The position numbers and the translations under genes were made by a program. A stretch of 64,000 nucleotides of DNA from NCBI GenBank assembly GCA_001782825.1, contig MFPS01000008.1, positions 9,012-73,011 of the forward strand, read 5' to 3'. The first letter of the stretch is position 1; every line of letters begins with the position of its first letter. Shown here piece by piece: positions 21,989-61,698 of this stretch. Source of the DNA: Candidatus Magasanikbacteria bacterium RIFCSPHIGHO2_01_FULL_33_34. Its GTDB lineage: Bacteria; Patescibacteriota; Patescibacteriia; Magasanikbacterales; UBA922. The notes beneath the pieces were generated by a model. The model was not told where the DNA came from, did no database searches, and saw only the letters and a list, made by a program, of their open reading frames with translations.

Positions 21989-22127
21989 ATTTACAATGTT
22001 TTATTTTTTTGTTATACTAATAAATATCTGTTATTTATATGTAAGATATAATAGTATTGTTTATACTTTAAACTAATACTTAATTATAAATAATGCTTTT
22101 AATTCTTACAACTTATATAATATACAT

Positions 22128-25502: not shown

Positions 25503-25530
25503 GCTTTTGTATTTTTTATTTTGTATTAGC

Positions 25531-33004: not shown

Positions 33005-35050
33005 ATGGCATTAAAAACAAATGTTAAACAAAATATTCGTAATAAAATTAGATGGGGTGTAGTTGGGATTTTTGCATTAATTGTGGTAGCAGTGTCTTAT
33101 GATGCGCCAACTTTTTTTAATAATAAAATCAATTGGATAAATAGCGTTACATCAATCGGTATACCAAATATTCCTGAAAGTTCTTTTGCGCTTGGTCTAG
33201 ATTTGCAAGGTGGTGCCCATCTGATATATCAGGCTGATGTAGCTGGTATTTCAGAAGATGGAAAAGGGGATGCAGTTGAAGGTGTACGTGACGTAATTGA
33301 GCGTCGTGTAAATGGTTTGGGTGTTGGTGAACCAAATATTCAAACTACCAAAGTTGGAGAAGATTATAGAATTATAGTTGAGTTACCGGGTGTGACTGAT
33401 GTAAATGAAGCTATTAGTATGATTGGTGAAACTCCGATATTAGAATTCAAAGAATTGAATCAGGAACCAGAACGTGGATTGACCGAAGAAGAACAAAAAG
33501 AAATTGATGATTATAATGCTGATGCAGAATCCAGAGCATTGTCTGTGGTTGAAAAGTTAAATAATGGTCTTGATTTTTCAGATGCAGCCAAAGAATTTTC
33601 AGAACATGAAGTTAGTAAGAATAATGGTGGATATATTGGGTTTGTGAATGAATATGGTTATTATGCGCCAATCTATAATTGGTTATCTGGCGCTGGTGAA
33701 GGGGAGATATCAAAAGGTTTAATAGAGTCATTGGATAGTTTTAATATCTTGAAAAGAGGCTCTAGTAGGGATGGTGAAGTGAGGGCTAAGGCGAGTCATA
33801 TTTTGATTTGTTATCTTGGTTCATCACAATGTAATGAACCAATTTATACAAAAGAAGAAGCCAAAGCTAAGGCTCAAGAATTGTTTGATCAGGCCAATGC
33901 AGAAAATTTTGGTATTTTGGCTAAAGAAAATTCAGCAGACCCTGGTTCTCGTGAAAATAATGGTGATTTAGGATTTTTTGCAAAATCTGATATGGTAAAA
34001 GAATTTGCTGATGCTGTATTTAGTGCAGAGGTGGGTCAAATTATAGGACCAGTTGAGACAGAATTTGGTTATCATGTTATATACAAAACAGATGAAACAA
34101 TTCCTGTAGAATATGAATTTTCTGCAATCGTTATAAACAAAAAAACTGCTCAGGATGTTTTGCCTGTGCAAGATCAGTTTGTGTATACTGGTTTGACTGG
34201 TGCACAATTGGAAAGGACAGAAGTGGTAAGTGATTCACAGACAAGTGAAATGCAGGTATCTTTGCAGTTTGATTCTGATGGAAAAAATTTGTTTAAAGAA
34301 ATTACTACTAGAAATGTTGGTCAACCTGTAGCAATATTCCTTGATGGCGAAATTATCAGTGCGCCAACTGTACAACAACCAATAGTTGATGGTCAGGCAG
34401 TAATAACTGGTAATTTTGATTTGGCAGAAGCAAGATTATTAAGCCAAAGATTGAATGCGGGTGCATTACCAGTACCAATTGATCTTATTTCACAACAAAG
34501 TGTTGGTGCAAGTCTTGGGGCTGAATCATTGATGAAGAGCTTGAAAGCCGGAGTTATTGCGCTTGTATTGGTGATGATATTTATGATTTTGTATTATAGA
34601 TTACCAGGATTATTGTCAGTGATCGCTTTAGTATTATATTTAGCAGTCACATTAGCAGTATTTAAATTGATTGGTGTTACGCTTACTTTGGCGGGTATTG
34701 CTGGTTTGGTATTATCAATTGGTATGGCAGTTGATGCCAATGTGCTAATTTTTGAACGCTTAAAAGAAGAATTGAAAGATGGTAAAAGTTTGAAGGCATC
34801 TGTAGAAGAAGGATTTCTTCGTGCTTGGCCATCAATTCGTGATGGAAATGTTTCAACTTTGATCACTTGTGCATTATTGATTTGGTTTGGATCTAGCTTT
34901 GTTCAAGGATTTGCGATTACACTTGCACTTGGTATATTGATGAGTATGTTTTCTGCGATTACTGTTACTCGCATATTACTTAGATTTGTAATACCTTGGT
35001 TTGAAAATAAAGGAAAGTGGTTATTTACAGGAGCAAATAATGATAATTAA
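33005..35050 (+). CDS. secD: protein-export membrane protein SecD with two parvulin (PpiC-type PPIase) domains inserted in the periplasmic head
   Basis: SecD P1 motifs (LGLDLQGGAHLIY...) and C-terminal TM bundle; inserted ~235 aa contain ASHILI...NGDLGFF...FGYHVIYK (parvulin signature) and a second parvulin-like repeat (LDFSDAAKEFSE...NGGYIGFV); 681 aa. Confidence 0.9.
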   Translation: MALKTNVKQNIRNKIRWGVVGIFALIVVAVSYDAPTFFNNKINWINSVTSIGIPNIPESSFALGLDLQGGAHLIYQADVAGISEDGKGDAVEGVRDVIERRVNGLGVGEPNIQTTKVGEDYRIIVELPGVTDVNEAISMIGETPILEFKELNQEPERGLTEEEQKEIDDYNADAESRALSVVEKLNNGLDFSDAAKEFSEHEVSKNNGGYIGFVNEYGYYAPIYNWLSGAGEGEISKGLIESLDSFNILKRGSSRDGEVRAKASHILICYLGSSQCNEPIYTKEEAKAKAQELFDQANAENFGILAKENSADPGSRENNGDLGFFAKSDMVKEFADAVFSAEVGQIIGPVETEFGYHVIYKTDETIPVEYEFSAIVINKKTAQDVLPVQDQFVYTGLTGAQLERTEVVSDSQTSEMQVSLQFDSDGKNLFKEITTRNVGQPVAIFLDGEIISAPTVQQPIVDGQAVITGNFDLAEARLLSQRLNAGALPVPIDLISQQSVGASLGAESLMKSLKAGVIALVLVMIFMILYYRLPGLLSVIALVLYLAVTLAVFKLIGVTLTLAGIAGLVLSIGMAVDANVLIFERLKEELKDGKSLKASVEEGFLRAWPSIRDGNVSTLITCALLIWFGSSFVQGFAITLALGILMSMFSAITVTRILLRFVIPWFENKGKWLFTGANNDN

Positions 35051-35053: not shown

Positions 35054-36094
35054 ATGGAAATTATAAAAAATAGAAAAATTCCGTTTACTATTTCTGGTAT
35101 TTTGTTTGTTGTCAGTGTTATAGCTTTATTTTTATTTGGATTAAAGCCCGGCATAGATTTTACTGGTGGTGCTTTGATGGAAGTCAGGTTTGGAAATGAA
35201 CGACCAGAAATATCAGAAGTGCAATTAGCCTTGTCTGAAATGAATCTGGGCGAAGTTTTGATACAACCAACTGGTGAAGATAATATGATATTGAAAATGA
35301 GATTTGTGTCAGAAGAAGAGCATCAAGCAATTTTGGGTGTATTGAGAGAAAAATTTCAAAATAGTACAGAAGAAATAATTGATGAAGATATTATTTCAGA
35401 AGACACAGTTGAGGATGTTGTTGGGGGTGATACAAATAAAGAGGAAATTAATTTTGAATTACCAACGATAGAGACAGAAGAAGTTATTGACAAACCTATT
35501 ATTCAAGTGCCAGATGTATTGGAAGAAAGATTTGAAACTATAGGTGCGGCAATCAGTTCTCATTTAAGAGAAAGATCTATGTATGCTGCTGTGGCTGTTG
35601 TGTTAGCAATAATTTTGTATATTGGTTATACTTTTAGAAAGGTTTCTAAACCAGTACAATCATGGAAATATGGTGTTACAGCTATTATTGCTCTTTTTCA
35701 TGATGTAATTATTACAATGGCAGTATTTGCAGTATTAGGACATTATGCTGGAGTAGAAGTTGGGATATCATTTGTGGTAGCATTATTAACTATTATGGGT
35801 TATTCGGTCAATGATACTATTGTGGTATTTGATCGTATTCGTGAAAATTTGATAAAACGTGGAAGTGATCAATTTGATGAAACAGTCAATATGGGTGTTA
35901 AACAATCAATTACTCGTTCACTTAATACTTCCTTGACTACTTTACTTGTATTGGTTGCTTTATTTGTATTTGGTGGTGAATCTATACATTATTTTTCGTT
36001 AACATTAATTGTAGGAATAGTCGTTGGAACTTATTCATCAATATTTTTGGCTAGTCCGTTATTAGTTGAATGGGCAAATTATAAGAAAAGATAA
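35054..36094 (+). CDS. secF: protein-export membrane protein SecF
   Basis: 346 aa; SecF TM-bundle motifs (HDVIITMAVFA, FDRIRENL). Confidence 0.9.
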   Translation: MEIIKNRKIPFTISGILFVVSVIALFLFGLKPGIDFTGGALMEVRFGNERPEISEVQLALSEMNLGEVLIQPTGEDNMILKMRFVSEEEHQAILGVLREKFQNSTEEIIDEDIISEDTVEDVVGGDTNKEEINFELPTIETEEVIDKPIIQVPDVLEERFETIGAAISSHLRERSMYAAVAVVLAIILYIGYTFRKVSKPVQSWKYGVTAIIALFHDVIITMAVFAVLGHYAGVEVGISFVVALLTIMGYSVNDTIVVFDRIRENLIKRGSDQFDETVNMGVKQSITRSLNTSLTTLLVLVALFVFGGESIHYFSLTLIVGIVVGTYSSIFLASPLLVEWANYKKR

Positions 36095-36368: not shown

Positions 36369-37829
36369 ATGGAAATTGGTCCTATAAATATTGATTTGTC
36401 ATACGCACAGACTTTTTTTCAAGGAAAAGGGACTTTTGAGGTTGTAATGTTGGTAATTGCATGGTTTGGTTGGATAGTTATTGTATATTTTTTACTTTTT
36501 ATTATGTTATTCCTATGGAAGGAATACAAAGAAGAACAGTACAAGAAGGATTGGAAATGGGTACTTTTGGCGATAGATATTCCACCAGAAAATATGCAAA
36601 CCCCAAAAGCTGTTGAACAAATGTTTTCTCATTTGGCTGGGGCACATGATAGTCCGAATATTGCTGATAAATTTAGAACTGGTTATAAACAGCGTTGGTT
36701 TAGCTTTGAAATTATTAGTATGGAGGGGTATATTCAGTTTTTGGTGCGAACTGAGGAAATGTTTAGAGATTTGGTAGAAGCAGCAGTTTATGCGCAATAC
36801 CCAGGAGCTGAAATTTTTGAGGTTGAAGATTATGTTGATCAAGTACCAGACAAATTTCCTTCAGATGAATATGATATGTGGTCAGCAGATTTTGGTTTAG
36901 CAGAAAATTTTGCTTTTCCGATTAGAACATATGAAGAATTTGAACATAAGCTTTTTAAAGATGAGATGTTGAAGGATCCAATGGGAACATTTTTGGAAAG
37001 TTTTAGTCGGATCGGAGCTGGAGAACAGGTTTGGTTTCAGATTTTATTGGAACCAATAGATAATAGTTGGAAAGAAAAAGTAATAAAAAAGATTAAAGAA
37101 TTGGTAGGTGATATGGCAAGTATGACTAGTAGTAATAGTAAAAAAGGCGGAGGCTTTACTAGTCTTATCACAGATGAACCCAAAAAAGCTATGGCAGAAC
37201 TTAGTGCTCAATTATTTGGTTCTGGTACTTCTGATGCGGATGGTAAGGTTGTAAAAGATACTAACAAAACTCCAAAATTGACTCCGGGACAATCAAAAAT
37301 ATTAGAAGCAATGGAGAAAAAAATAACTAAAATTGGATTTAAAACTAAAATGAGATTAGTATATGTTGCGCGAAAGGAAGTATTTAAACCAGAAAGAGCT
37401 GTTAATGCAATTATTGGGGCTATTGGTCTATATAATGTTCCGAGTTCTAATTCGATTGTGGCGACTTCATCTATTAGTACCAATTATTTTCTCAAAGAAT
37501 CAAGGAACCAAACTAAAAAAATTAAAGCAATGAGTGCATATAAGAAAAGAAAAATGAAAGTTGGTGGCAATTCTTTTGTGTTTAATATAGAGGAGTTGGC
37601 TACTATTTGGCATTTTCCATTATCTTATGTAAAGACTCCAAATGTGCAAAAGACACAAGGTAAAAGAGCTGAACCACCATCTGGCCTTCCGGTTGAAAAT
37701 ATTCCAATTGTTGCCAAGATTCCAGTAGATGAGAGTGATAATAAGACAGTCAAAAAAGGGCAAAATAAAACTATTATTACTGATGCAGGGGATGTGGCTT
37801 ATTTTAGTTCTGATGAAGAGTATGGTTAA
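36369..37829 (+). CDS. hypothetical membrane-anchored protein (N-terminal TM, large soluble domain)
   Basis: 486-aa ORF with AT-rich native codon usage; no recognised motif. Confidence 0.6.
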   Translation: MEIGPINIDLSYAQTFFQGKGTFEVVMLVIAWFGWIVIVYFLLFIMLFLWKEYKEEQYKKDWKWVLLAIDIPPENMQTPKAVEQMFSHLAGAHDSPNIADKFRTGYKQRWFSFEIISMEGYIQFLVRTEEMFRDLVEAAVYAQYPGAEIFEVEDYVDQVPDKFPSDEYDMWSADFGLAENFAFPIRTYEEFEHKLFKDEMLKDPMGTFLESFSRIGAGEQVWFQILLEPIDNSWKEKVIKKIKELVGDMASMTSSNSKKGGGFTSLITDEPKKAMAELSAQLFGSGTSDADGKVVKDTNKTPKLTPGQSKILEAMEKKITKIGFKTKMRLVYVARKEVFKPERAVNAIIGAIGLYNVPSSNSIVATSSISTNYFLKESRNQTKKIKAMSAYKKRKMKVGGNSFVFNIEELATIWHFPLSYVKTPNVQKTQGKRAEPPSGLPVENIPIVAKIPVDESDNKTVKKGQNKTIITDAGDVAYFSSDEEYG

Positions 37830-37835
37830 TTATTT

Positions 37836-38366
37836 TTAGATATTTATACTTTGTTTTGTACTTTTTTTGTTTTGATAGTATAGGACAGATTCTGTGGTTC
37901 CTACTAATATGAATGTATAGAAAATATCACCCATTAGACTATTTTTGAAGAAGGGAAGGGCCATATAGTAGGATTCAATTAATCCTGAAATTGAATGACT
38001 GTACATTGTACCAAAGATCCATACTGAGGCATTGGTTATAAGGAAGAATATTAGTGATCCCAATATTGTTGCTCCAGCAATTTTACCAAAGCTTTTGTTT
38101 TTTCTTGCAAGCAATCCTAGTAAGCCCATAATTACAAAACTGCCATAAACTGACAACATTATTTGCCAAGAGTAAAAGCCAATAAAAAAGTCGCTTATAA
38201 TAAGGGCGATCACTGGAATTATAATTGCATATTTTTTTGGGAAGTATAGTCCGCTAAAAATTGCAATAGCTCCAATTGGTACAAAATTGGCTGTATGTGG
38301 TAAGAATCTAAAGGTGATTCCAATAGCTAAAAGAAAGTATAAGATTATGTAGTTATTTTTGTTCAT
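37836..38366 (-). CDS. small polytopic membrane protein, ECF-transporter S-component-like (candidate vitamin/cobalamin permease)
   Basis: 176 aa, ~5-6 TM helices; size and topology typical of ECF S components; last gene of the riboswitch-fronted operon. Confidence 0.35.
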   Translation of the reverse strand: MNKNNYIILYFLLAIGITFRFLPHTANFVPIGAIAIFSGLYFPKKYAIIIPVIALIISDFFIGFYSWQIMLSVYGSFVIMGLLGLLARKNKSFGKIAGATILGSLIFFLITNASVWIFGTMYSHSISGLIESYYMALPFFKNSLMGDIFYTFILVGTTESVLYYQNKKSTKQSINI

Positions 38367-38394
38367 ATGTATTTTGTTGGAAATTATATGTAAG

Positions 38395-38575
38395 CTATAA
38401 TAGCATTATTTATATTTTTATCTATGACCGCATTATTTTCAATTATTTGTTTTTACTCCCTGCCTGCCGGCAGGCAGGATTCTCGCTTTGGCTCTGAGGG
38501 TGATGCATGTTGGGGCATCAAATCCGTAAAAACAAATAATTGAAAAAATGCTTAATTATAGATAATGCTCTTAAT
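38395..38575. repeat. structured palindromic intergenic repeat, copy b
   Basis: Outer TIR AGCATTATTTATA / TATAGATAATGCT, inner 17-nt IR CAATTATTTGTTTTTAC / GTAAAAACAAATAATTG (perfect), 20-bp perfect palindrome, GATGCAtgttggGGCATC hairpin. Confidence 0.8.
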
Positions 38576-38584
38576 TTTTACAAA

Positions 38585-40951
38585 TTATATTATATTTTTA
38601 AGGAATTTTAAACCCATATATAGACCAAGTCCAATGGCTCCAGAACCGGTAACTGCTATGACTTTTTCTATTATATTACGAGAGATTGGATTGGCTTGAT
38701 TTATTATATCATCCTCCAAATATTTTAATTCAGATATTTCAGTGGTTTCTCCTATTGGTTCTATGGTTTCATTTGGTTTATTATTAACCAAGTTTAACAT
38801 AGTATTGGTATCAGTAACAAGTGTAATATTATTTTCTTTTGTTATTTCTTGTGTTGTCGAAGTTATTATCGTTTCTTTGGTTGTATTTTGAACAGTATCA
38901 ATTTTGGTTATTGGTAAATTTTTTTCAATATTTTCTTCAATTAATTCTACAAAAATAGTTGATGTGACAAGCACTTCGGTTGATGTAACAAAAAGAGATT
39001 CAGTTGTGGTGTTAAAGTCTGTACCAATTATATTGCTGTATGAGTTTGAACTACTACTATTGGTTATAGTTGTAGGTATCTGTTCATTTGCTGTAGCAGG
39101 CGTAAATAATGGCTGTATAGGCCAGCTATAACCTAGTAGGGCTGGAATTGCATGTTTTGTATTGAACCAATCAACACCATCTACCCAGTCAGATGTATAA
39201 TAGCCATTTTCTTGTAAATTATCAATATATACAGACCATGGATTTTTGTCACCGATTGTCCATTCTTCTTGACCTTCACCTAGAGAATTTAAGCCCATCA
39301 AAACCCAGCTAGTGGTCAAGGTATCAGAAGTCAGATAACCCCAGCCACCATCATTATTTTGTTCATTTTTTAAATATTGCTTGGCTTTTGTAAATACACT
39401 ATTATCAATTTGAATTCCTTTTTCTTTTGCATAGTTTAATATATTTATAACTGCGCCAGTTATGTCTGCTCCGGCATAACCATCCCATGTGAATGCTCCG
39501 TCTGTATTTTGATCTGCTAAAATATCATTTAGTATATCAGTAATAATGTTTTCATTGATATTATTTTCAGATGTAAGCAATGCAAACAAAGCAAATACAT
39601 CATCATTAATTCCAGGTAATCCAAAGTCAGTTTCAGAATAACATTCGGTTTTTAGCGTATTAATTAGATTTATCATTGATTGATTATTGGTAGAAATTCC
39701 AGACGTATATAATGACAAATAGTGTCTTGGGTATGAAGCACAAACATTTAAATCAGTGGCATCAGTATAATTATAGTTTTTAATGTAGTCAGACAAGGAA
39801 GTAGAACTGGCAATAATATTAGCTGGATTTTTTCCATTGGCTACTAATGCCATTACAGACCAATCAGAAATCCCAGCATCTATGATTTTTCCAGTTTTGT
39901 CTTGGTTTTTTATTAAGAATTCGGTTAATTTATTGGCTGTGTTTGTAATTTGATTAGGTGAAATTAAATTTGTATAAGGTGTATTATTATCTGAAGATCC
40001 ACTACTTGAAGATCCGTTTGATGAATTATTTTCAGTAGTAGTAGAAATGATCGGTAGATCAAGTACATTTATGGTTATAGCGTTACTCCATTTTGAAAAG
40101 TCTGCCGGGGATATTTTTGCATAGTATGTCCCAGTCGCCGAGAACATAAAATCAACTATGCCATTTGTATCAGATACAAGCGTTGTAGTAGTTAAGGTTG
40201 TATCCCACCATCCAGTTGGGTTGGGATTGGTAATTGATATATCTATTGTATCATTGGCATCAGTTGACCATTCACTACTAGTAGTAGAAAAGTTATATTT
40301 GAAAGTTTGGAAGGTTGTAGTGGTACCAATTGGAAAGGTAGAAGTGCTAGCGGTAATTGACCATGGGTTTCCAAAGTATACATAAACATTTTCACCTCCA
40401 AATAATTCATATTTGTCCATACCGATATTTGGATATTCACCGTCTACAGCATATTGCCAATTGTAACAAGCTTCAGTGCTTGAATTAACTTCAATACAAT
40501 TTATCAAAAAACTATTAAAAGATTCATAATATACTAAATTTGAAATATTGAATGAAGCATTGTTTTGATTTTCTGTAAGGAGTGTAGTCAAAACATTATG
40601 GTTTTGTGATGAAGTTGTAAATATTTCATTGGTATTTGAATCTGTATAATCAAATGTTGTACTTGATGATAATTCAACTTCGCCTTGAAATATAAAATTA
40701 TCTTGATATCGCAAATTAAAGTTAATTGAAATTGGTTCATAAATTTCTTCTGTGGTGGTTGGTGTTTCAATAATATCATCTGTAGAGGTTGAAACTTCTT
40801 GTTCGGTTGAGCTAGTAGTTTGTGGGGTACTTGTAGAAGTGTCGCTATCATCAATAGCCCCAAAAGCAGAATTAACTGGTATGGTTATTAGTATTGAGAT
40901 AAACAGTATATTTATAAACAGTATAGGTGTATTAAAGATTTGATTTTTCAT
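38585..40951 (-). CDS. large cell-surface protein with prenyltransferase/terpenoid-cyclase-like alpha/alpha-toroid repeats; signal peptide, Ser/Thr-rich linker, C-terminal TM anchor
   Basis: Repeats such as QNTDGAFTWDGYAGADITGAVINIL, NEQNNDGGWGYLTSDTLTTSWVLMGL, GKIIDAGISDWSVMALVANG resemble squalene-cyclase/prenyltransferase-type repeats; 788 aa. Confidence 0.6.
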   Translation of the reverse strand: MKNQIFNTPILFINILFISILITIPVNSAFGAIDDSDTSTSTPQTTSSTEQEVSTSTDDIIETPTTTEEIYEPISINFNLRYQDNFIFQGEVELSSSTTFDYTDSNTNEIFTTSSQNHNVLTTLLTENQNNASFNISNLVYYESFNSFLINCIEVNSSTEACYNWQYAVDGEYPNIGMDKYELFGGENVYVYFGNPWSITASTSTFPIGTTTTFQTFKYNFSTTSSEWSTDANDTIDISITNPNPTGWWDTTLTTTTLVSDTNGIVDFMFSATGTYYAKISPADFSKWSNAITINVLDLPIISTTTENNSSNGSSSSGSSDNNTPYTNLISPNQITNTANKLTEFLIKNQDKTGKIIDAGISDWSVMALVANGKNPANIIASSTSLSDYIKNYNYTDATDLNVCASYPRHYLSLYTSGISTNNQSMINLINTLKTECYSETDFGLPGINDDVFALFALLTSENNINENIITDILNDILADQNTDGAFTWDGYAGADITGAVINILNYAKEKGIQIDNSVFTKAKQYLKNEQNNDGGWGYLTSDTLTTSWVLMGLNSLGEGQEEWTIGDKNPWSVYIDNLQENGYYTSDWVDGVDWFNTKHAIPALLGYSWPIQPLFTPATANEQIPTTITNSSSSNSYSNIIGTDFNTTTESLFVTSTEVLVTSTIFVELIEENIEKNLPITKIDTVQNTTKETIITSTTQEITKENNITLVTDTNTMLNLVNNKPNETIEPIGETTEISELKYLEDDIINQANPISRNIIEKVIAVTGSGAIGLGLYMGLKFLKNII

Positions 40952-41525
40952 ATTTCCATTCTATTAAATCGTTATTATTAATTATGTAATTAGATATGCC
41001 TATTTTTGCTGATTCTCCATTTATGTAGTATACCCAGTATTTACCAGCTCGATTATCATTTTCAATACCATTTAATTTTGTAATGAAATATCCGATATTA
41101 CTATAGTCTATTGCCTCAAATGTAATTAAGTTATTTTTAGAAAGTTTTTCCATTGCGTGGTATAAGCTAGTATTTTCTTGTGCTGATGATACATAAGTAT
41201 TGTTATCTATATTTAGAGTAAACTTAATTGGATATTCAATGGTTATTTTATCAGTTGTAGTTTCATTGAATGTGGTTTTATCAGTAGTAGTTACTATATT
41301 ATTTATATCTTCTATTATTTCAGAATTTTCAAATTTAATTTTTTCAACTTCATCTTCAATTTTTTCATTATTAATTATGGGGTTATTAGTAGTCGGTTTT
41401 TTATTCTCTATAAATATTTCTTTGTTTGAAGTTAACTGTAAATAGGTAATTCCAAAAATAGTTATGAATATTAAAATTATCATCAGAAATATTAAAGGTT
41501 TGTTTTTTTTGTAAAAATTATTCAT
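40932..41525 (-). CDS. DUF4430-domain protein (transcobalamin/BtuG-like B12-binding beta-domain), membrane-anchored
   Basis: C-terminal NGIENDNRAGKYWVYYINGESAKIGISNYIINNNDLIEWKYE matches DUF4430 signature; ATG at 41525 preferred, because the in-frame TTG at 41573 would place the riboswitch terminator hairpin inside the CDS. Confidence 0.65.
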   Translation of the reverse strand: MNNFYKKNKPLIFLMIILIFITIFGITYLQLTSNKEIFIENKKPTTNNPIINNEKIEDEVEKIKFENSEIIEDINNIVTTTDKTTFNETTTDKITIEYPIKFTLNIDNNTYVSSAQENTSLYHAMEKLSKNNLITFEAIDYSNIGYFITKLNGIENDNRAGKYWVYYINGESAKIGISNYIINNNDLIEWKYEKSNL

Positions 41526-41536
41526 AAAATTAAAAA

Positions 41537-41685
41537 ACTTTCCGGCAGGAAAGATAAGTTGATCAAAAATCAAAGGTCCTGCTCGGGTTACGCATTTATT
41601 TGAAGATCGGACTCGTTCCCTAAAGGGACATTACCGTTGCGGCACAGTGAGGGGATTTACCCTACTTCCACAAATAAATGGTTTA
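41537..41685 (-). promoter_or_regulatory. candidate cobalamin (B12) riboswitch with terminator-type expression platform
   Basis: Minus-strand RNA: P1 CAUUUAUUUG...CAAAUAAAUG enclosing GGGUAAAUCCCCUCACUGUGCCGCAACGGUAA (cf. consensus GGUGAAAAUCC...CCGCCACUGUAA) and GAGUCCG (start of B12 box rAGYCMG); followed by CUUUCCUGCCGGAAAG hairpin + UUUUUUAAUUUU directly before the DUF4430 ATG. Confidence 0.5.
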
Positions 41686-41784
41686 GTTGTATTGTCAGAT
41701 TATCATTGAATAGTAGTAGTGTCAAGTATTGATTTTAAGCTAAAATTAGTGTATAGTTTTGCCATATGTGGATAACTGAGTGAG

Positions 41785-41878
41785 ATTAATAGAAATTATT
41801 ATTCGCTCATTCTCGCTTTGGCTCCGAGGTGGTTGCCTGTTGTGGCAACCAAATCCGCTCGTAATAATTTCTATTAAT
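41785..41878. repeat. variant copy (d) of the structured repeat core, with different 19-nt terminal inverted repeats
   Basis: ATTAATAGAAATTATTATTCG...CGTAATAATTTCTATTAAT flank core TTCTCGCTTTGGCTCCGAGGTGGTTGCCtgttgtGGCAACCAAATCCG; hairpin shows compensatory change (GTTGCC/GGCAAC versus GATGCC/GGCATC in copies a-c). Confidence 0.7.
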
Positions 41879-41895
41879 GGTATTTTTGAAAAAGT

Positions 41896-42858
41896 ATGTG
41901 GATTGATAAAATTTTAAATAAAAACAAAAAAATAATGGCTTTGTCGCCAATGGCGGATATGACTGATTCGCCATTTTGTCGTATAGTGCGTCAAATTGGC
42001 GGAGTGGATATTGTGTTTCGAGAAATGGTGAGTAGTGAGGCTTTGGTTAGAGGAAGTGAAAAGACATTGAAAATGGCTGAATTTCACAAAACAGAAAGAC
42101 CAATTGTTCAGCAGATTTTTGGGGCAGACCCATTGATAATGGCTAGATCTGCAGATATCGTAATGCAACATTCTAATCCCGAAGGGATTGATATAAATAT
42201 GGGTTGTCCAGTTTATAAAATAACTAGTAATTTTAATGGTTGTGCTTTGATGAAGGACCCGGAGTTGGCTAGTAAGATTATAAAAGAAATGAAATCTGCA
42301 ATTGGTGATACGCCTTTGTCAGTTAAGATAAGGTTAGGTTGGAGTAATCCGGATGATTTTAAGATATTTATTCCGGCTATTGAGCGAGCTGGAGTTGATT
42401 TGATTACTGTTCATGGTAGAACAAAAGAACAAGGATATTCTGGAGTAAGTGATTGGCAGAGGATTGCAGAGGCCAAAAAAATTGCGACTGTGCCATTATT
42501 AGCCAATGGAGATATTCATGAACCTAGTCAGGTAAGTGAGGCGCTTGAAATTACTGGAGCTGATGGAGTTTTGATAGCTCGGGGCGCGCTTGGGAATCCT
42601 TGGTTTTTTGATATGATAGGAAAAAATGGTGAGATGGTCTCTTTAGATGAAAGAAAACGAGTAGTGCTAGAACATCTAAAATTGCATATTGAACATTATG
42701 GAGAACGGGGGATTGTAACTTTTAGAAAACATTTGTCTTGGTATTTCAAAACCAATAAAATAGGCCAGAATTTACCAAATATAAAAGAATGGAGATCAAA
42801 AATAGTACAAGTTAAAACTTTGGAAGAGGTGGAATCTCTGTTGGGTGAATTAAATTAA
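41896..42858 (+). CDS. tRNA-dihydrouridine synthase
   Basis: LSPMADMTDSPFCRIV, catalytic NMGCP, TIM-barrel Dus pattern; 320 aa (alternative ATG at 41935). Confidence 0.9.
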   Translation: MWIDKILNKNKKIMALSPMADMTDSPFCRIVRQIGGVDIVFREMVSSEALVRGSEKTLKMAEFHKTERPIVQQIFGADPLIMARSADIVMQHSNPEGIDINMGCPVYKITSNFNGCALMKDPELASKIIKEMKSAIGDTPLSVKIRLGWSNPDDFKIFIPAIERAGVDLITVHGRTKEQGYSGVSDWQRIAEAKKIATVPLLANGDIHEPSQVSEALEITGADGVLIARGALGNPWFFDMIGKNGEMVSLDERKRVVLEHLKLHIEHYGERGIVTFRKHLSWYFKTNKIGQNLPNIKEWRSKIVQVKTLEEVESLLGELN

Positions 42859-43561: not shown

Positions 43562-45328
43562 TTACTCCCATTCAATAGTCCCTGGAGGTTTATTGGTTAT
43601 ATCAAAAAATACAAAATCAACTTTATCTATTATTTCAATTTCAGCTTGTATTTGTTTTATTACATTTTTTGGCAGTTTTGCAAAGTTTACTGTCATAGCT
43701 TCTTCTGATTCAACTGGTCGTATAACTATACTTTCTTTGTGATTGTATCCAAAAGGGATTAAAACTATTGGCATTTGCCAGATATGTGAACAATTTTTAT
43801 TGTTGTTAACAATTTTATTGATTTTATTATCAAGTTGACGTAACAGGCTGATTCTTTCTTTTGTTAGGTATGACTTTTTAAGTGTAGAATTTTTTATTTG
43901 CTCTTCATTTCCATAAATGGTTATTAAAACTCTATTTATATTTTTATATTTATTAGTTATTTTAGGAGATATTTTATGTAGTTTTTGCCAATTTATTTTT
44001 GTATTAGTTAAAACTAGAGGATGCTTGTAACTTCTTTCATCACCTTGTACGCCAACTGATTTTATAGGTAATTTTGTACCTTCAGATATAGTTATTGGTT
44101 TTTTATTGTTTCCTTCTGAACATAGACAACGAATTGCCAGACCAGGTCCAGGGAAAGGTTGTCTATTTATTAAATTTTTTGGAAGATTTAATTTTAATCC
44201 TATTTTTCTCACTTCGTCTTTGTATAATTCTTTGATTGGTTCAATAATCAAACCCTTTTGAATCATTTTTTGTATTCTATCAACTCGATTATGATGAGTT
44301 TTGATTTTATCAGAATTTTTTGTTCCACCGGATTCAATGGTATCTGGATAAATAGTACCTTGACCTAGTAACCAGTCTTTTTCATTAAAATTTAGTTTTT
44401 TCATTATTTTGTCAGTAATATCCAGAAAAAGATTTCCAATAATTTTTCTTTTTTCTTCTGGTTCATAAACTTTTTTTAAAGATTCAAAATATTCTTTTGA
44501 TGCGTTATATATATGCAAATCATCAAGACCAATATTTGTAAGAGCTTCTTTTACTTGTTCTGATTCGTTCAAGCGCATAAAACCATGATCAATATGAAAA
44601 CCATAAACTTTGTCTTTTCCTAAAGTTTTTTCAAGCAAAGTAAAACATATTGTTGAATCAACGCCACCACTAATTAAAAGAAAAATTTTTTTATTTTTTG
44701 CTTCTTTACGTATATTTTCTTGTATTTGTAGAAGCATATCATTTGTATTCCAGTTTTTTTCTGCATTACAAATATTCAAAACAAAATTTTCTAACATTGT
44801 TTTACCATCTATGCTGTGATTGACTTCTGGATGGAATTGAAAGCTATAGATATTTTTTTCTGATAAAGACATAGCTGTAATTGAATTATTTCCAGTTGTT
44901 CCAATTTGTTTGAAGTTTTTTGGTAATTTTTCAACATTGTCACCGTGGCTCATCCAAACCGTTGTTTGTTTTTTTATATTGTTAAATATTGGTGAGTCTG
45001 ATATTTTTAAAGATGCAATTCCGTATTCTCTTATTTTTCCAGATGAAATTTCACTTCCAAAATGTTGAGCAATTAATTGGTGGCCATAACATAATCCGAG
45101 AATTGGTTTATTTTGTTTAAAAATATTTGTATCGTATTCTAATTTTTCAGAAGAAGTAACACTTTTTGGTCCTCCTGATAAAATAATACCAACTGCATTG
45201 GTGAGTTTCTCAGCTTTTGTATCATTTGGGTATATGTGTGATATAACACCAATTTCTCGGATACGCCTAGCAATCAAATGGGTGTATTGTGATCCAAAAT
45301 CAAGTATAGCTATTTCATTATTTGACAT
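43562..45328 (-). CDS. guaA: GMP synthase (glutamine-hydrolysing), long form
   Basis: GATase CYGHQ/H-P-E triad, ATP-PPase P-loop SGGVDST; 588 aa. Confidence 0.95.
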   Translation of the reverse strand: MSNNEIAILDFGSQYTHLIARRIREIGVISHIYPNDTKAEKLTNAVGIILSGGPKSVTSSEKLEYDTNIFKQNKPILGLCYGHQLIAQHFGSEISSGKIREYGIASLKISDSPIFNNIKKQTTVWMSHGDNVEKLPKNFKQIGTTGNNSITAMSLSEKNIYSFQFHPEVNHSIDGKTMLENFVLNICNAEKNWNTNDMLLQIQENIRKEAKNKKIFLLISGGVDSTICFTLLEKTLGKDKVYGFHIDHGFMRLNESEQVKEALTNIGLDDLHIYNASKEYFESLKKVYEPEEKRKIIGNLFLDITDKIMKKLNFNEKDWLLGQGTIYPDTIESGGTKNSDKIKTHHNRVDRIQKMIQKGLIIEPIKELYKDEVRKIGLKLNLPKNLINRQPFPGPGLAIRCLCSEGNNKKPITISEGTKLPIKSVGVQGDERSYKHPLVLTNTKINWQKLHKISPKITNKYKNINRVLITIYGNEEQIKNSTLKKSYLTKERISLLRQLDNKINKIVNNNKNCSHIWQMPIVLIPFGYNHKESIVIRPVESEEAMTVNFAKLPKNVIKQIQAEIEIIDKVDFVFFDITNKPPGTIEWE

Positions 45329-45369
45329 ATTGTGTAGTTAATAATCGTTCTTGAATATTATCAGAAAGT

Positions 45370-46881
45370 ATGTTAAAGTTCAATTTATTTAGTATATTTA
45401 TTGGTATGTTTAAACAATTTCAAGACACTTTTACATTTGATGATGTGTTGCTGGTACCACAAAAATCAGAGATTTTACCGAAGGATGTAAAAATTCATAC
45501 ATATTTGACTAGAGAGATAAAGCTCAATGCACCATTTTTGAGTGCGCCCATGGATACTGTGACAGAACATGAAATGGCAATTAAAATGGCTTTGGCAGGT
45601 GGTATAGGTATAATTCATAAGAATTTATCAATTGATGATCAGGTAGCAGAAATTAGGAAAGTAAAACGTTTTGAAAATGGATTTGTCAAAAATCCAATGA
45701 CTGCACACCCGAGTGATCCGATGAGTAAAATAATTCAAATAAGAAATAAATTTGGTTATAAAAAAGTACCAATTGTCGACAATGATGGTGTGTTGGTAGG
45801 ATTTATTTCTGATATTGATTATTTGATGTTGCCTGATAATGATGAACATAAAGTATTGGATTTTATGTTTCCAGTCCAAAAAATGAATGTTGGATATGAA
45901 GGAATGAGCTTGAAAGAGGCTTATCAGATGATTCAAAAATTTCGTTTACGTACTTTATGTATTGTTGATAAGAATAATAAATTGGTAAGTATAGTAACTC
46001 GTCGTGATTTGGAAAAAAGTTTATTATATCCAAATTCTTCAAAAGATAGTACTAAACAATTGCTTGTTGGTGGAGCAATAGGCGTGGGTATAAATGGTAT
46101 TGAACGGGCAGAAAATTTACTGAAAGCCGGAACTGATGTTTTAATTGTAGATACTGCGCATGGTCATTCTAGAGGTGTTATAGATACAGTGAAAGAAATT
46201 AAGAGAAAATGGTCAGGTGTACAAGTTATTGCTGGGAATATTGCATCTTCTGATGCTGCAAAAGATTTGATTGATGCTGGTGTAGATGCCTTGAAAGTTG
46301 GTATTGGGCCTGGTTCAATTTGCACAACTCGTATAGTTGCAGGCATAGGTGTACCACAATTATCTGCTATTATGGAGGTGGTCAAGGGTGTATATAATTC
46401 ACAAAGAAAAGTTCCAGTCATTGCTGATGGTGGAATCAAGTCATCTGGTGATGTTGTAAAAGCTCTGGCAGTTGGTGCTATGTCTGTGATGATGGGTAAT
46501 ATGTTTGCTGGCACAGATGAATCTCCTGGAAGAATAGAATATACCAATGGTAGAATGTATAAAGTTTATCGTGGAATGGGTAGTATTGATGCAATGGAAT
46601 TTGGTAGTAAAGATAGATATGGGCAGGCAGAAATTAAAGAAAAACAAAAATTTGTTCCAGAGGGTGTGAGTGGACGGGTGGCATACAAAGGATCAGTTTC
46701 TACTATTTTATATCAATTGGAAGGTGGTTTACGAAGTGGTTTTGGTTATAATGGAGCTCGTAATATTTCAGAATTACAAAAACGAGCTCATTTTGTAAAG
46801 ATAACGGGGTCAAGTTTGAAAGAAAGTCACCCTCATGATTTAAAAGAAGTTAGTAGTGCTCCAAATTATAGTATTGATTAA
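45370..46881 (+). CDS. guaB: IMP dehydrogenase with CBS pair
   Basis: FTFDDVLLVP, catalytic loop GIGPGSICTTR, CBS domains; 503 aa. Confidence 0.95.
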   Translation: MLKFNLFSIFIGMFKQFQDTFTFDDVLLVPQKSEILPKDVKIHTYLTREIKLNAPFLSAPMDTVTEHEMAIKMALAGGIGIIHKNLSIDDQVAEIRKVKRFENGFVKNPMTAHPSDPMSKIIQIRNKFGYKKVPIVDNDGVLVGFISDIDYLMLPDNDEHKVLDFMFPVQKMNVGYEGMSLKEAYQMIQKFRLRTLCIVDKNNKLVSIVTRRDLEKSLLYPNSSKDSTKQLLVGGAIGVGINGIERAENLLKAGTDVLIVDTAHGHSRGVIDTVKEIKRKWSGVQVIAGNIASSDAAKDLIDAGVDALKVGIGPGSICTTRIVAGIGVPQLSAIMEVVKGVYNSQRKVPVIADGGIKSSGDVVKALAVGAMSVMMGNMFAGTDESPGRIEYTNGRMYKVYRGMGSIDAMEFGSKDRYGQAEIKEKQKFVPEGVSGRVAYKGSVSTILYQLEGGLRSGFGYNGARNISELQKRAHFVKITGSSLKESHPHDLKEVSSAPNYSID

Positions 46882-46910
46882 TAAAATTATATTTTAAGTA
46901 TAAGGTAATT

Positions 46911-48446
46911 TTAATGTTTGAAACATCTATTTCCAGTAAATACCATACTTATTTTGTATTCGTTACAAGCTTTGATTACTTCTTCATCTTTTATTGAGCC
47001 ACCAGGTTGGATTATGGCTTTGATTCCTGTTTGAGCAATTTTATCTATACTATCTCTAAAAGGAAAAAACGCATCAGAACATAATACAGAATCTTTTATT
47101 TTTTCACCACTTTTTTTAATAGCCAAATCAACTGCATCAATCCTTGAGACTTGTCCTGGACCAATACCAATGGTGGTATTATTTTTTGCTATTAAGATTG
47201 CATTTGATTTCACATGTTTGAGTACTTTCCAACCAAATAACATATCAATTAGTTCTTGTTCTGTTGGTTGTTTGTCAGTCACAAATTGCAGATCTTCTTT
47301 TTTGATTATTTTTGTATCAATATCTTGTACAAGTAGTCCACCTTCAATATAACGAAATTCTAATTTATCTTGATTTGGTAATATATTGCCTAATTCAAGA
47401 ACACGCATATTTTGTTTTTTGTCTAACACCCCTAAAGCTTCTTTGTCATAATTTGGCGCCAAAACTATTTCTACAAATACTTTTGTTATTTCTTCAGCAA
47501 TAGCTTTGGTGCAGGTTCTGTTAAGTGCAATAATTCCACCAAATGCAGACATTGGATCAGTATTGTAGGCCTGTTTGAATACTGTAGCTATGTTATCTCC
47601 AATAGCGACTCCACATGGGTTAGCATGTTTTACTATTACACAGGCTGGTTCTGTAAATTCTTTTAGGGTTGATAATGCTCCATCAGCATCATTTATATTA
47701 TTGTAGGATAATTTTTTACCTTGTAAAATTTTTGCATTCAATATATTACAACCTTTGTTATTTGGTTTTTTATAAACTGATGCCATTTGATGTGGATTTT
47801 CTCCGTAACGTAATTCATAATCTTTTTTGAAAGTTAAAGAAAAATTATAAGAAAATTTTTCTTCTTTTAGATGATTGTGGATTATGGTGTCATATTGTGC
47901 TGTATGACCAAAAGATTTTATAGCCATTTTTTTTCTGGTTTCAAAATTTATTCCGCCAGATTTTAATTCTTCGAGTAGGGGATTGTAGTCTTGTGGATCT
48001 ACAATTACTGTAACCCAACCCATATTTTTGGCAGCACTACGTATCATGGTTGGACCACCAATATCAATATTTTCAATTATTTCATCATAGTTTACGTTTT
48101 CTTTTAGAATAGTTTCAGAAAATGGATAAAGATTGCATACGACCAAATCTATCCATTTTATTTCATTTTGTTCAGCAATTACTTTGTGGGAGTCTCTAAG
48201 CCCTAAAATACCACCATGAACTTTTGGGTGTAGAGTTTTAACACGACCTTCCATCATTTCTGGAAATCCAGTAAATTCAGAAATATCTTTTACATTTATA
48301 TTTGCTTCAGTTAGTTTTTTGGCTGTTCCGCCAGTAGAAATTATTTCTATCCCTAATCTTTGTAATTCTTTAGCAAATTCTAAAATTCCATCTTTGTTAG
48401 AGACTGAGATCAAAGCTCTGTGGATTTGAGTACTATTTTTGTTCAT
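46911..48446 (-). CDS. purH: bifunctional AICAR transformylase / IMP cyclohydrolase
   Basis: MGS-like N-terminus RALISVSNKDGILEFAKELQRLGIEIISTGGTAK and AICARFT domain; 511 aa. Confidence 0.95.
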   Translation of the reverse strand: MNKNSTQIHRALISVSNKDGILEFAKELQRLGIEIISTGGTAKKLTEANINVKDISEFTGFPEMMEGRVKTLHPKVHGGILGLRDSHKVIAEQNEIKWIDLVVCNLYPFSETILKENVNYDEIIENIDIGGPTMIRSAAKNMGWVTVIVDPQDYNPLLEELKSGGINFETRKKMAIKSFGHTAQYDTIIHNHLKEEKFSYNFSLTFKKDYELRYGENPHQMASVYKKPNNKGCNILNAKILQGKKLSYNNINDADGALSTLKEFTEPACVIVKHANPCGVAIGDNIATVFKQAYNTDPMSAFGGIIALNRTCTKAIAEEITKVFVEIVLAPNYDKEALGVLDKKQNMRVLELGNILPNQDKLEFRYIEGGLLVQDIDTKIIKKEDLQFVTDKQPTEQELIDMLFGWKVLKHVKSNAILIAKNNTTIGIGPGQVSRIDAVDLAIKKSGEKIKDSVLCSDAFFPFRDSIDKIAQTGIKAIIQPGGSIKDEEVIKACNEYKISMVFTGNRCFKH

Positions 48447-49017
48447 AAGATTTTTTTTTAATTACTTCAATGAAGGCTTCACCTTCAAGTTTTTGGACTT
48501 TTGATTTTAAGGTTTCTGGCGTATCTTTTGAAGTTACAGGACAACTTTTTTGGATTATAATAGGTCCAGTATCTATTCCTTCATCTATAATATGGATTGT
48601 ACAACCAGTTTCTTTGACGCCAGCTTTTAGTACTTCTTCATGTACATTTAAATCCATCTTACCAGCAAATGCTGGTAAAAGAGATGGGTGTACATTTAAA
48701 ATTTTATTTCTCCATTTATTGATAAAGTTTATAGAAATGATACGCATATATCCTATCAGTAGTACTAAATCAATATTTTTTTTATCTAATATTTTCATTA
48801 TTTCTGCATCAAACTCTTTTTTGGTTTTATTTTTTGGGTTTATATATATGTTTTCTATATTAGCATTTTTTGCTCTTTCTAATATATATGCATCAGATTT
48901 ATCACTAATAACAATATCAAGTGAAGCATTTAAATCATCATTTTTTATAGCTTCTATAATTGGTTGCATACTAGTGCCTCGTGTTGATCCTAAAATTGCT
49001 ATTTTTAACTTATGCAT
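48433..49017 (-). CDS. purN: phosphoribosylglycinamide formyltransferase
   Basis: 194 aa; formyl-transferase core (NVHPSLLPAFAG), overlaps purH start. Confidence 0.9.
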   Translation of the reverse strand: MHKLKIAILGSTRGTSMQPIIEAIKNDDLNASLDIVISDKSDAYILERAKNANIENIYINPKNKTKKEFDAEIMKILDKKNIDLVLLIGYMRIISINFINKWRNKILNVHPSLLPAFAGKMDLNVHEEVLKAGVKETGCTIHIIDEGIDTGPIIIQKSCPVTSKDTPETLKSKVQKLEGEAFIEVIKKKSYEQK

Positions 49018-49074
49018 AAATGAATGATTTTATATTTATATAAGTATATAAGTAATGTGAATTAATTTGTAAGT

Positions 49075-49262
49075 TATAATAGCATTATTTATACTTTCAA
49101 TCACGACCATATTATTTTCAATTATTTATTTTTACTCCCTGCCTGCCGGCAGGCAGGATTCTCGCTATGGCTCCGAGGGTGATGCATGTTGGGGCATCAA
49201 ATCCGTAAAAATAAATAATTGAAAATAATGCTTAATTATAAATAACGCTTTCAATTTTTACA
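49075..49262. repeat. structured palindromic intergenic repeat, copy c
   Basis: Outer TIR AGCATTATTTATA / TATAAATAACGCT, inner IR CAATTATTTATTTTTAC / GTAAAAATAAATAATTG (perfect, compensatory A/T versus G/C in copy b), 20-bp perfect palindrome; left flank on minus strand reads TTGAAA-16nt-TATAAC toward purN. Confidence 0.8.
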
Positions 49263-49287
49263 ATTAATTTATAGTATTCACATATGC

Positions 49288-50598: not shown

Positions 50599-50708
50599 AT
50601 TTTTTAAAGTTAGGTGTATGGTATAACTTTGTTTATACGTTTAACTATGATTATATTAGTTTTAATTATAAGTAACCTTTTCTTTTTATAAGTTAGGTTT
50701 TAAATTAT

Positions 50709-52172: not shown

Positions 52173-52200
52173 AAATAAAAATAATTAGGATAAAAATTTA

Positions 52201-53559: not shown

Positions 53560-53566
53560 AGATAAT

Positions 53567-56233: not shown

Positions 56234-56246
56234 AAGCTAATTGCAT

Positions 56247-57287: not shown

Positions 57288-57337
57288 ATTATTTGACTTT
57301 TGTATTTTACTATGTTTAAATTTGATGAGAAAGGGGA

Positions 57338-61695: not shown

Positions 61696-61698
61696 TTA

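Follow-up and report, generated by a model that had tools for sequence, protein, structure and literature searches.

Layout of the locus

The window analysed here, a 64-kb stretch of a metagenome-assembled genome (MAG) of a Candidatus Magasanikbacteria bacterium (candidate phyla radiation (CPR)/Patescibacteria) with a G+C content of about 32%, contains on its minus strand a candidate vitamin B12 uptake operon (37836-41725) made up of a riboswitch and three genes. Gene 1 (40932-41573 on the minus strand as called mechanically, 213 amino acids from a TTG start) encodes a DUF4430 protein, gene 2 (38585-40951, minus strand) a 788-residue cell-surface protein with an alpha/alpha toroid, and gene 3 (37836-38366, minus strand) a 176-residue DUF6580 membrane protein with the S-component fold. 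Genes 1 and 2 share 20 nucleotides (nt; 40932-40951), and genes 2 and 3 are separated by a 218-nt spacer. The three minus-strand open reading frames (ORFs) and the overlap had been described at these same coordinates in an earlier interpretation made without database searches (the sequence-only reading).

The comparative set was obtained from a scan for DUF6580 relatives with an alignment of the closer members of the family, the diverse alignment being too divergent, and was reduced to one genome per species, giving 80 loci (cited below by L numbers) out of at least 560 genomes with a relative. Family hidden Markov models (HMMs) for all three proteins were run over every ORF of the 80 loci, among which several negatives stem from contig ends that cut the locus. 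Overlap of the DUF4430 gene with the toroid gene is the rule in most related loci (11-32 nt in at least 26 of them, exactly 20 nt in 14), which suggests translational coupling.

A cobalamin riboswitch in front of the operon

The genes are preceded by a riboswitch aptamer of the adenosylcobalamin (AdoCbl) type (41574-41682, minus strand), which includes a conserved 3' element, CCCGAGCAGGA. A scan of the whole window at the Rfam gathering threshold reported no riboswitch; a permissive scan placed RF01482 (AdoCbl) at 41593-41680 on the minus strand (43.6 bits, E=7.6e-6, model positions 17-104 of 149). The remaining permissive matches (snoRNA families and BtsR1, E of about 7-9) were dismissed as chance. 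RF01482 is found at gathering threshold directly 5' of the orthologous cluster in three relatives (L021, L025 and L046, 52-59 bits), the classical RF00174 precedes it in a high-GC MAG (L042), and about 50 loci have a 17-nt core motif, CTGTGCCGCAACGGTAA, shortly 5' of the cluster on its own strand.

When 21 leaders were aligned by MAFFT with helices guided by Rfam, 86.6% of the cells paired, against 37-53% in slid controls, and 13 pairs were changed on both sides. A custom covariance model built from this alignment and scanned over 922 kb (E<=0.01) gave 51 matches: the window copy on the minus strand (41574-41682, 108 bits, E=4e-22) and 50 on the operon (plus) strand of related loci, with one in each of 48 loci and two in tandem in L005. 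In the alignment of all 51 sequences, which was fitted to the model and is hence biased toward the structure, 95.3% of the cells are paired (35-51% in slid controls) and 17 of 21 pairs show compensatory changes. A structure computed by RNAalifold on the MAFFT alignment was partly spurious (a GGAA/UCC helix was present and P1 absent) and was replaced by the Rfam-guided structure. Judged by homology, covariation and position, the riboswitch that the sequence-only reading had placed in front of the operon is real, its sub-threshold Rfam match being backed by the relatives and by the terminator platform described below. Fifty of the 80 loci have the riboswitch, 42 with all three proteins and eight with the DUF4430-DUF6580 pair alone. 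The Rfam cut-off is reached by only three of the nine CPR copies scanned, the window copy not among them, and the CPR subclass is therefore under-detected.

Two departures from the common arrangement were observed. Four leaders (L049, L058, L060 and L064, at about 3052, 2523, 2477 and 3223, respectively) lack the entire inner P5/P6 hairpin (…CAACGGTAA-AAGTCCGATC…) and constitute a minimal riboswitch variant that retains the terminator and the remainder of the core. L005, the closest sequenced relative (74% identity), has its tandem aptamers at 4879-4976 and 5048-5157, before a two-gene DUF4430-DUF6580 operon, and its terminator is identical to that of the window.

Probable promoter, expression platform and start of gene 1

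The probable operon promoter lies at 41691-41725 on the minus strand (GACAAT at 41696-41691, TTGACA at 41725-41720), with non-canonical spacing of the hexamers. Its GACAAT corresponds, in an alignment of 44 leaders, to a conserved TACAAT box (consensus ..TTACAAT..) located some 13 nt 5' of P1; a scan for the sigma-70 consensus called no convincing operon promoter.

The expression platform is an intrinsic terminator hairpin (CTTTCC-TGCC-GGAAAG followed by T6; 41532-41553, minus strand), the sole terminator-like site within 37600-42000, which lies downstream of the aptamer and ahead of the first ATG (41525). In the minimum free energy fold, GCAGGA within the invariant CCCGAGCAGGA pairs with UCCUGC of the terminator 5' arm, indicating a choice between anti-terminator and terminator. 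In 46 of 49 leaders the aptamer is followed by a hairpin and T-run, a combination present in 48 of 500 windows drawn at random from these loci (9.6%), and complementarity to GAGCAGGA recurs in the 5' arms of the terminators, CTGCTC… and TTCCTGC… being examples. By analogy with known cobalamin riboswitches, binding of the ligand would sequester the conserved 3' element.

Since the ORF starting at TTG-41573 crosses the riboswitch terminator, that start is considered an artefact. The most likely start of gene 1 is ATG 41525 (MNNFYKKNK…), which gives a protein of 197 amino acids (40932-41525), in agreement with the N-termini of its aligned homologues.

Gene 1 encodes a homolog of the transcobalamin beta-domain

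Gene 1 belongs to Pfam family DUF4430 (PF14478, E=7e-17, 62.1 bits versus a cut-off of 23.8), and the membrane-anchored DUF4430 protein of the sequence-only reading is thus confirmed, under an accession other than the PF15461 given there. A lysine-rich N-terminus and one transmembrane helix would put the C-terminal domain outside the cell. As a single sequence, gene 1 matches the haptocorrin beta-domain in the PDB (4kki, E=0.0017 by phmmer), and a profile of 24 members matches haptocorrin (4.9e-9), intrinsic factor (4.8e-7) and transcobalamin-2, the isolated beta-domain of the latter among the matches (6.7e-6); at E<=1e-4 the only structures matched are beta-domains of these three proteins, the next being a small SLBB protein (3u7z). 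By these profile matches the DUF4430 domain shares ancestry with the three beta-domains, and from this homology and its genomic context it is predicted to bind a corrinoid.

Gene 2 encodes a surface protein with beta, Ig-like and toroid domains

The product of gene 2 consists of a signal peptide, a Ser/Thr-rich linker, a DUF4430 domain (residues ~75-195), an Ig-like domain (~197-297), an alpha/alpha toroid (332-610), a Thr/Ser-rich stalk and a C-terminal transmembrane anchor (758-787). Its DUF4430 domain, the second of the operon, is marginal in Pfam (residues 149-194, 24.5 bits versus 23.8) and clear with the family HMM (residues 107-195, E=8e-17). The AlphaFold2 model, based on 34 homologues, has predicted local distance difference test (pLDDT) values above 90 for the beta-rich residues 70-300, which form the SLBB domain and an Ig-like sandwich, and for the 12-helix alpha/alpha toroid (modelled at ~330-610), with disordered Ser/Thr-rich linkers and a C-terminal transmembrane helix. 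The sequence-only reading had recognized a secreted, C-terminally anchored toroid protein, in keeping with the signal-like segment, the transmembrane helix and the modelled toroid, and had overlooked the DUF4430 and Ig-like domains. Its description of the operon as a split transcobalamin is accordingly too simple, as gene 2 itself carries both beta-like and alpha-like domains, in the reverse of the transcobalamin order.

The affinities of the toroid are ambiguous. Foldseek matches it to the thioester-containing domain (TED) of alpha-2-macroglobulin and complement, single-domain squalene-hopene cyclases, drimenyl-diphosphate synthases, transcobalamin (2bb5, 4zrp) and haptocorrin (4kki), all at E values of 1e-5 to 1e-8, so the fold does not discriminate. 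By sequence, the family profile finds its best PDB matches among squalene-hopene cyclases (E=6e-17), through a QW-like repeat; gene 2 is nevertheless under the cut-offs of SQHop_cyclase_C (PF13243, 23.5 versus 26.1 bits) and TIGR01787 (21.8 versus 322.7 bits), and the cyclase DxDD acid motif (DVDDT), aligned to s-a-D-i-T in the family profile, is not kept. Among 34 homologues, 33 match SQHop_cyclase_C, 25 match DUF4430 and five match Cobalamin_bind (PF01122, 27-31 bits versus a cut-off of 25, on one toroid hairpin). Because neither Foldseek nor profiles can separate these affinities, gene 2 was not assigned to the transcobalamin family (PF01122), whose order of N-terminal toroid followed by C-terminal beta domain it does not have. 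As far as its predicted domains tell, it shares the parts list of transcobalamin, differently ordered. The alpha-to-beta order is found in relatives L066, L070, L071, L082 and L089. NCBIfam returned nothing useful for genes 1, 2 or 3.

The toroid lies ahead of the DUF4430 domain, as in animal transcobalamin, in L084 as well as in these five relatives, and in all six the next gene encodes a conserved secreted protein of about 180 residues with no Pfam match. In L066, L082 and L084 this gene is followed by BtuR-DUF4430-DUF6580, and L066, L070, L082 and L084 have a class II ribonucleotide reductase gene upstream.

Gene 3 encodes a DUF6580 protein with the S-component fold

Gene 3 is a member of Pfam family DUF6580 (PF20221, 158.1 bits versus 27, E=2.8e-46, profile positions 5-155 of 162), which comprised 4619 clusters at 50% identity in an exhaustive HMMER pass (E<=1e-3) and is not mentioned in the literature searched; NCBI names its relatives 'DUF6580 family putative transport protein', and the gene 3 product is 100% identical to a protein recorded for 'Candidatus Magasanikbacteria bacterium RIFCSPHIGHO2_01_F…'. 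AlphaFold2 gave a six-helix S-component fold (pLDDT 96.5, predicted template modelling score (pTM) 0.89), for which the best Foldseek match in the PDB is BtuM with bound hydroxycobalamin (8ovv, TM-score 0.66), followed by ThiT, PanT, FolT and RibU.

At the level of sequence, phmmer of gene 3 found no match in the PDB, and the DUF6580 profile matched one chain at E<=10, a 182-residue 'Membrane protein' (6fnp_A, E=6.8e-6, helices 1-3), the matched fragment of which belongs to the Pfam family ECF_trnsprt (PF12822). As 6FNP is the energy-coupling factor (ECF) transporter ECF-CbrT, and as the fragment is ECF_trnsprt, the chain was taken to be CbrT, and the match indicates distant homology between DUF6580 and CbrT at the profile level. 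No sequence homology to the BtuM family was detectable with either the profile or phmmer against the PDB. The sequence-only reading had compared gene 3 with the CbrT-like ECF S components, which holds for the S-component fold and the CbrT profile match and fails for the family, which is DUF6580 rather than CbrT or BtuM. An alignment of 37 DUF6580 sequences has the invariant residues R20, N27, D59, G63, F107, N112, Y122, G128 and P138; conservation of H24 is complete only within the set of 14 closer relatives. Gene 3 is most likely a B12 S-component-like predicted corrinoid transporter that falls outside both the BtuM and the CbrT families.

A repeat inserted before gene 3

The spacer between genes 2 and 3, which in relatives measures about 20-90 nt, is occupied here by a genome-specific repeat (38354-38591, minus strand) consisting of a promoter-like site, a hairpin and a leader that extends into the start of gene 3. 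The repeat noted by the sequence-only reading is borne out, with three near-identical units in minus-strand sense (25489-25681, 38354-38546 and 49033-49225; full extents 25489-25727, 38354-38591 and 49033-49271) where 0.02 copies would be expected in the window, a diverged core 5' of the operon (41809-41852, minus-strand sense) and a partial copy at 22063-22119 (minus-strand sense). The leader common to the copies extends into the start codon of the downstream gene. The hairpin (38430-38551, -50.3 kcal/mol, z=-8.4) has the core GAGCCAAAGCGAGAAT and an internal GC palindrome, CCTGCCTGCCGGCAGGCAGG. The repeat core is absent from all 83 related loci searched, and so the repeat is not a conserved RNA of the operon; both a miniature inverted-repeat transposable element or mobile promoter and a structured regulatory leader were considered.

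The repeat may have given gene 3 a promoter of its own and thereby made it partly independent of the riboswitch. In a stronger form of this proposal, which is a tenable minority view, the repeat ends or processes the mRNA of genes 1 and 2, and gene 3 is read from a constitutive promoter that the repeat provides, so that gene 3 is not on the riboswitch transcript. Consistent with such decoupling, a promoter-like TTGTAA-17-TATAAT (38583-38555, 10 of 12 consensus matches) follows straight after the stop codon of gene 2, the hairpin lies downstream of it, the insertion is missing from relatives, and the other copies of the unit front two unrelated genes, one for a family-4 glycosyltransferase (24333-25502) and one for a PurN-like formyltransferase (Formyl_trans_N, 48433-49017) situated between the GARS and AICARFT/IMPCHase genes. 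The hairpin, however, has no T-run and so is no canonical terminator, and promoter-like matches in this AT-rich region are barely above expectation (35 versus 26.7±5.5 in shuffled sequence).

In seven relatives (L014, L020, L031, L032, L034, L047 and L055), a third DUF4430 gene (120-132 amino acids) is found between the toroid gene and the DUF6580 gene, where the window has the inserted repeat.

Conserved gene context

The DUF4430 gene is directly 5' of the DUF6580 gene in 69 of the 80 loci, and a toroid protein is encoded in the cluster in 52; on these linkage counts the minimal conserved unit is DUF4430-DUF6580. The toroid protein is an add-on that varies between close relatives, being missing from L005. 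At several loci without a riboswitch, the DUF4430-DUF6580 pair stands behind genes for the class II ribonucleotide reductase NrdJ and the adenosyltransferase BtuR/CobA; by jackhmmer, BtuR/CobA occurs in seven loci and class II ribonucleotide reductase in nine. The association extends to distant DUF6580 members on contigs with Pfam annotation (35-37% identity), such as L084 (NrdJ…toroid–x–CobA_CobO_BtuR–DUF4430–DUF6580) and L087 (BtuR–DUF4430–x–DUF6580). No ORF with a Walker A motif and an ABC signature was found in any of the 80 clusters or anywhere in the 64-kb window. The window also contains no cobalamin biosynthesis gene, as the sequence-only reading had observed, 64 kb saying little about the genome.

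Proposed function and alternatives

The locus is probably a system by which an ultrasmall CPR bacterium scavenges and imports corrinoids (vitamin B12) and which is repressed by B12. Extracellular capture and uptake under riboswitch control, proposed in the sequence-only reading, is thus supported by the riboswitches of the relatives, the PDB matches of the gene 1 profile and the BtuR and NrdJ neighbours. Transcription would start just 5' of 41682 and produce the AdoCbl-type riboswitch first. Without ligand, the GAGCAGGA element would pair with UCCUGC, the terminator would be blocked, and genes 1 and 2 would be transcribed; with ligand, the terminator (41553-41538) and T-run would form. The gene 1 protein would display one beta-type domain of the transcobalamin kind (SLBB/DUF4430) on the external side of the membrane, and gene 2, translationally coupled by the 20-nt overlap, would present its beta, Ig-like and toroid domains at the end of a long stalk rich in Ser and Thr. 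One corrinoid would be expected to be sandwiched by the toroid and a beta domain in the manner of transcobalamin, binding being predicted from homology. Gene 3 would then take over the captured corrinoid and carry it across the membrane, acting alone as BtuM does or with an ECF module encoded elsewhere. A use for it inside the cell is suggested by relatives that encode BtuR/CobA and AdoCbl-dependent class II ribonucleotide reductase beside the same genes. With a promoter-like site in the repeat that parts it from gene 2, gene 3 may be partly independent of the riboswitch.

Several observations weigh against this interpretation. The aptamer of the window falls short of the RF01482 gathering cut-off (43.6 versus 50 bits), and no riboswitch is detectable in about 30 of the 80 relatives. 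Gene 3 matches none of the ECF S-component families of Pfam (for example PF12822 and PF07155), only DUF6580, and contains no cysteine at all, hence not the invariant cobalt-ligating cysteine of BtuM. Gene 2 of the window has no match to PF01122 at E<=0.1, and neither the sequence nor the fold of its toroid places it nearer to transcobalamin than to squalene-hopene cyclases or TED. The 64-kb window encodes neither BtuR nor an ECF module, nor any enzyme that depends on B12. Furthermore, a homologous split system of Lactobacillus sakei has been claimed to be a heme importer.

More tentatively, DUF6580 might constitute a third and hitherto unrecognised lineage of corrinoid transporters with the S-component fold, after CbrT and BtuM, that works without a module, receives its substrate by direct hand-off from tethered transcobalamin homologues, is the main route of B12 entry into CPR bacteria, and uses ligands other than cysteine (for example the conserved histidine of LPHxxNF). 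If this were true, the adjoining beta-Ig-alpha and alpha-beta proteins would be prokaryotic relatives of transcobalamin still beside their transporter.

It is somewhat unlikely, though worth serious consideration, that gene 3 is instead an ordinary group-II ECF S component that docks on an EcfAA'T module encoded elsewhere, transport being ATP-driven rather than solitary. The sole sequence-level match of DUF6580 in the PDB is CbrT, which uses an ECF module, and Rodionov and colleagues reportedly noted in 2009 that shared ECF modules are typically encoded away from the S-component genes. Opposed to this are the lack of any protein with ABC ATPase motifs in the clusters of the 80 loci or in the window, the nearest fold, BtuM, which needs no module, and the failure of DUF6580 to match a Pfam ECF S-component family.

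Import of another tetrapyrrole, either heme (as for L. sakei lsa1836-1840) or incomplete corrinoids such as cobinamide, is improbable. In L. sakei, an operon that encodes an ECF transporter and proteins resembling the alpha and beta parts of transcobalamin has been linked to heme content, BtuM binds cobinamide too, and haptocorrin-like binders accept many corrinoids. Yet the riboswitch before the cluster in 50 of 80 genomes is of the cobalamin class, the neighbours are BtuR/CobA and AdoCbl-dependent NrdJ, and no heme-related gene was seen nearby; incomplete corrinoids, for their part, fall inside the proposed corrinoid scavenging. It is very improbable that gene 2 is an enzyme (some homologues are named 'terpene cyclase/mutase family protein' by NCBI, squalene-hopene cyclases are its best sequence-level matches in the PDB, and SQHop_cyclase_C is the top Pfam match of its toroid) or a generic envelope or adhesion protein with an incidental link to B12, given that it scores below the cyclase cut-off, has xxDxT in place of the acid motif, is apparently exported and anchored outside (signal peptide, C-terminal transmembrane helix, Ser/Thr stalks), includes an SLBB domain of the B12 type, and in 42 loci has a B12 riboswitch ahead of it.

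CPR bacteria have minimal genomes and live off other cells. The corrinoid uptake proposed here bears on how they acquire cofactors, amounts to a testable functional assignment for DUF6580, a large family of unknown function, and offers a two- or three-protein model for the passage of B12 from a transcobalamin-type binder to a transporter, a step that in bacteria has so far only been predicted. It also bears on S-component transport without an ECF module, and the scans indicate that Rfam thresholds overlook most copies of the cobalamin riboswitch in CPR bacteria.

Other genes in the window

A dihydrouridine synthase gene (41896-42858, plus strand) lies divergently upstream of the cluster. On the other side, a 486-codon ORF (36369-37829, plus strand) with N-terminal transmembrane segments and no Pfam match converges on gene 3, the two stop codons being 6 nt apart with no predicted terminator between them. 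Elsewhere the window encodes functions in translation, secretion, the cell wall and de novo purine synthesis, the last of these (43562-62550) complete or nearly so in this CPR genome. The purine genes include an 888-residue fusion of GATase_5 (PurQ-like), SAICAR synthetase and AIR carboxylase (53567-56233), and Pfam identifies adenylosuccinate synthetase and lyase, AIR-synthase-related (PurL/PurM-like) proteins, amidophosphoribosyltransferase, GARS, formyltransferase, AICARFT/IMPCHase, IMP dehydrogenase, GMP synthase and tetrahydrofolate dehydrogenase/cyclohydrolase.

Further domain arrangements were noted in leucyl-tRNA synthetase (8604-11606, plus strand, 1000 residues), in which an alpha/beta-hydrolase or serine-hydrolase domain (residues 465-622) lies between the editing and anticodon-binding domains, and in a SecD-like protein (33005-35050, plus strand), in which PPIC-type peptidyl-prolyl isomerase (rotamase) domains (residues 249-364) lie between the SecD P1 N-terminal and head subdomains, with SecF encoded at 35054-36094. 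The ComEC-like competence channel domain and the metallo-beta-lactamase domain are encoded by separate genes (11609-13060 and 13770-14678, plus strand), between which there is a 177-codon ORF with no Pfam match. An Elp3-like protein (18763-20439, minus strand; radical SAM, Radical_SAM_C and GNAT acetyltransferase domains) adjoins a GGDEF diguanylate cyclase (17871-18716, minus strand).

Comparison with known systems

The surface B12 binders described from Bacteroides (BtuG, BtuH and DUF4465) are different proteins. The sequence-only reading had credited BtuG with the fold of the DUF4430/transcobalamin beta-domain, mistakenly, as BtuG is not a DUF4430 protein and represents a different kind of surface lipoprotein. 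BtuG is a beta-propeller.

Two B12-specific S-component proteins are known. BtuM works without a module, binds cobinamide as well, and in its family has an invariant cobalt-ligating cysteine (Cys80 in BtuM_Td) (PMC6072759). Compared with BtuM of Thiobacillus denitrificans (6FFV/8OVV), gene 3 has neither detectable sequence homology nor a cysteine, and BtuM is found in Gram-negative proteobacteria beside BtuB rather than beside DUF4430 proteins. CbrT is the S component of the vitamin B12 transporter ECF-CbrT (6FNP) (PMC5997447). The Lactobacillus delbrueckii complex is the sole solved structure matched by the DUF6580 profile, but CbrT belongs to PF12822 and needs EcfAA'T, whereas DUF6580 forms a Pfam family of its own and lacks a linked module. 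Like the window, L. sakei lsa1836-1840 combines a stand-alone beta-like protein, an alpha-toroid-like protein and an S-component transporter; unlike the window, this split beta/alpha pair is beside a complete ECF transporter within the operon, has been interpreted in terms of heme uptake, and has no reported riboswitch (bioRxiv 10.1101/864751).

The CPR riboswitches share with RF01482 (clan CL00101) the core helices and conserved junction (CUGUGCCGCAACGGUAA..AGUCCG), a terminator platform and a position before B12 transport genes, but unlike RF01482 most of them fall short of the Rfam gathering threshold. With animal transcobalamin, intrinsic factor and haptocorrin (PF01122 and PF14478; 2bb5, 2pmv and 4kki), the window proteins share sequence homology of the beta-domain and the toroid fold, and some homologues of gene 2 pass the Cobalamin_bind cut-off of that family. 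The animal proteins are soluble and have the order alpha-beta, which L071, L082 and L089 keep, whereas those of the window are membrane-anchored, have the order beta-Ig-alpha in gene 2, and include an additional stand-alone beta-domain protein; the toroid of gene 2 is closer by sequence to terpene cyclases.

The nearest precedents are the bacterial transcobalamin-like SLBB proteins described in 2007 by Burroughs, Balaji, Iyer and Aravind, who defined the SLBB superfamily and predicted a bacterial origin of animal transcobalamin (PMC1796856). Transcobalamin sandwiches B12 between its toroid and a beta-grasp domain, and the bacterial versions, in which the toroid may be fused on either side of the SLBB domain, with Ig domains, a paralogous SLBB gene in the operon and CbiO/CbiQ neighbours, were predicted to be B12 scavengers (PMC1796856). 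The sequence-only reading had called the toroid partner of DUF4430 uncharacterised, which is inaccurate to the extent that the toroid-SLBB architecture and its scavenging role were foreseen in that study (PMC1796856), and accurate in that the role is a prediction. The operon of the window has in common with those systems (now PF14478) the anchored or secreted SLBB-toroid protein, the Ig-like domain and the second SLBB gene, and resembles them further in that scavenging was predicted for organisms without B12 synthesis. It differs from them in that DUF6580 replaces the CbiO/CbiQ-type (ECF/ABC) genes as the sole membrane partner, with no ATPase linked across the 80 loci, and in its CPR hosts and riboswitch link, which do not figure in the 2007 description. 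The literature searched did not link CPR/Patescibacteria to cobalamin riboswitches or B12 transporters, and contained no account of a DUF6580 membrane partner, of module-free linkage, of prevalence in CPR genomes or of a CPR riboswitch subclass. Thus, transcobalamin-like surface proteins in bacterial uptake operons are already known as a prediction of 2007 (PMC1796856), while a candidate transporter role for DUF6580 and a subclass of CPR riboswitches under-detected by Rfam look to be new.

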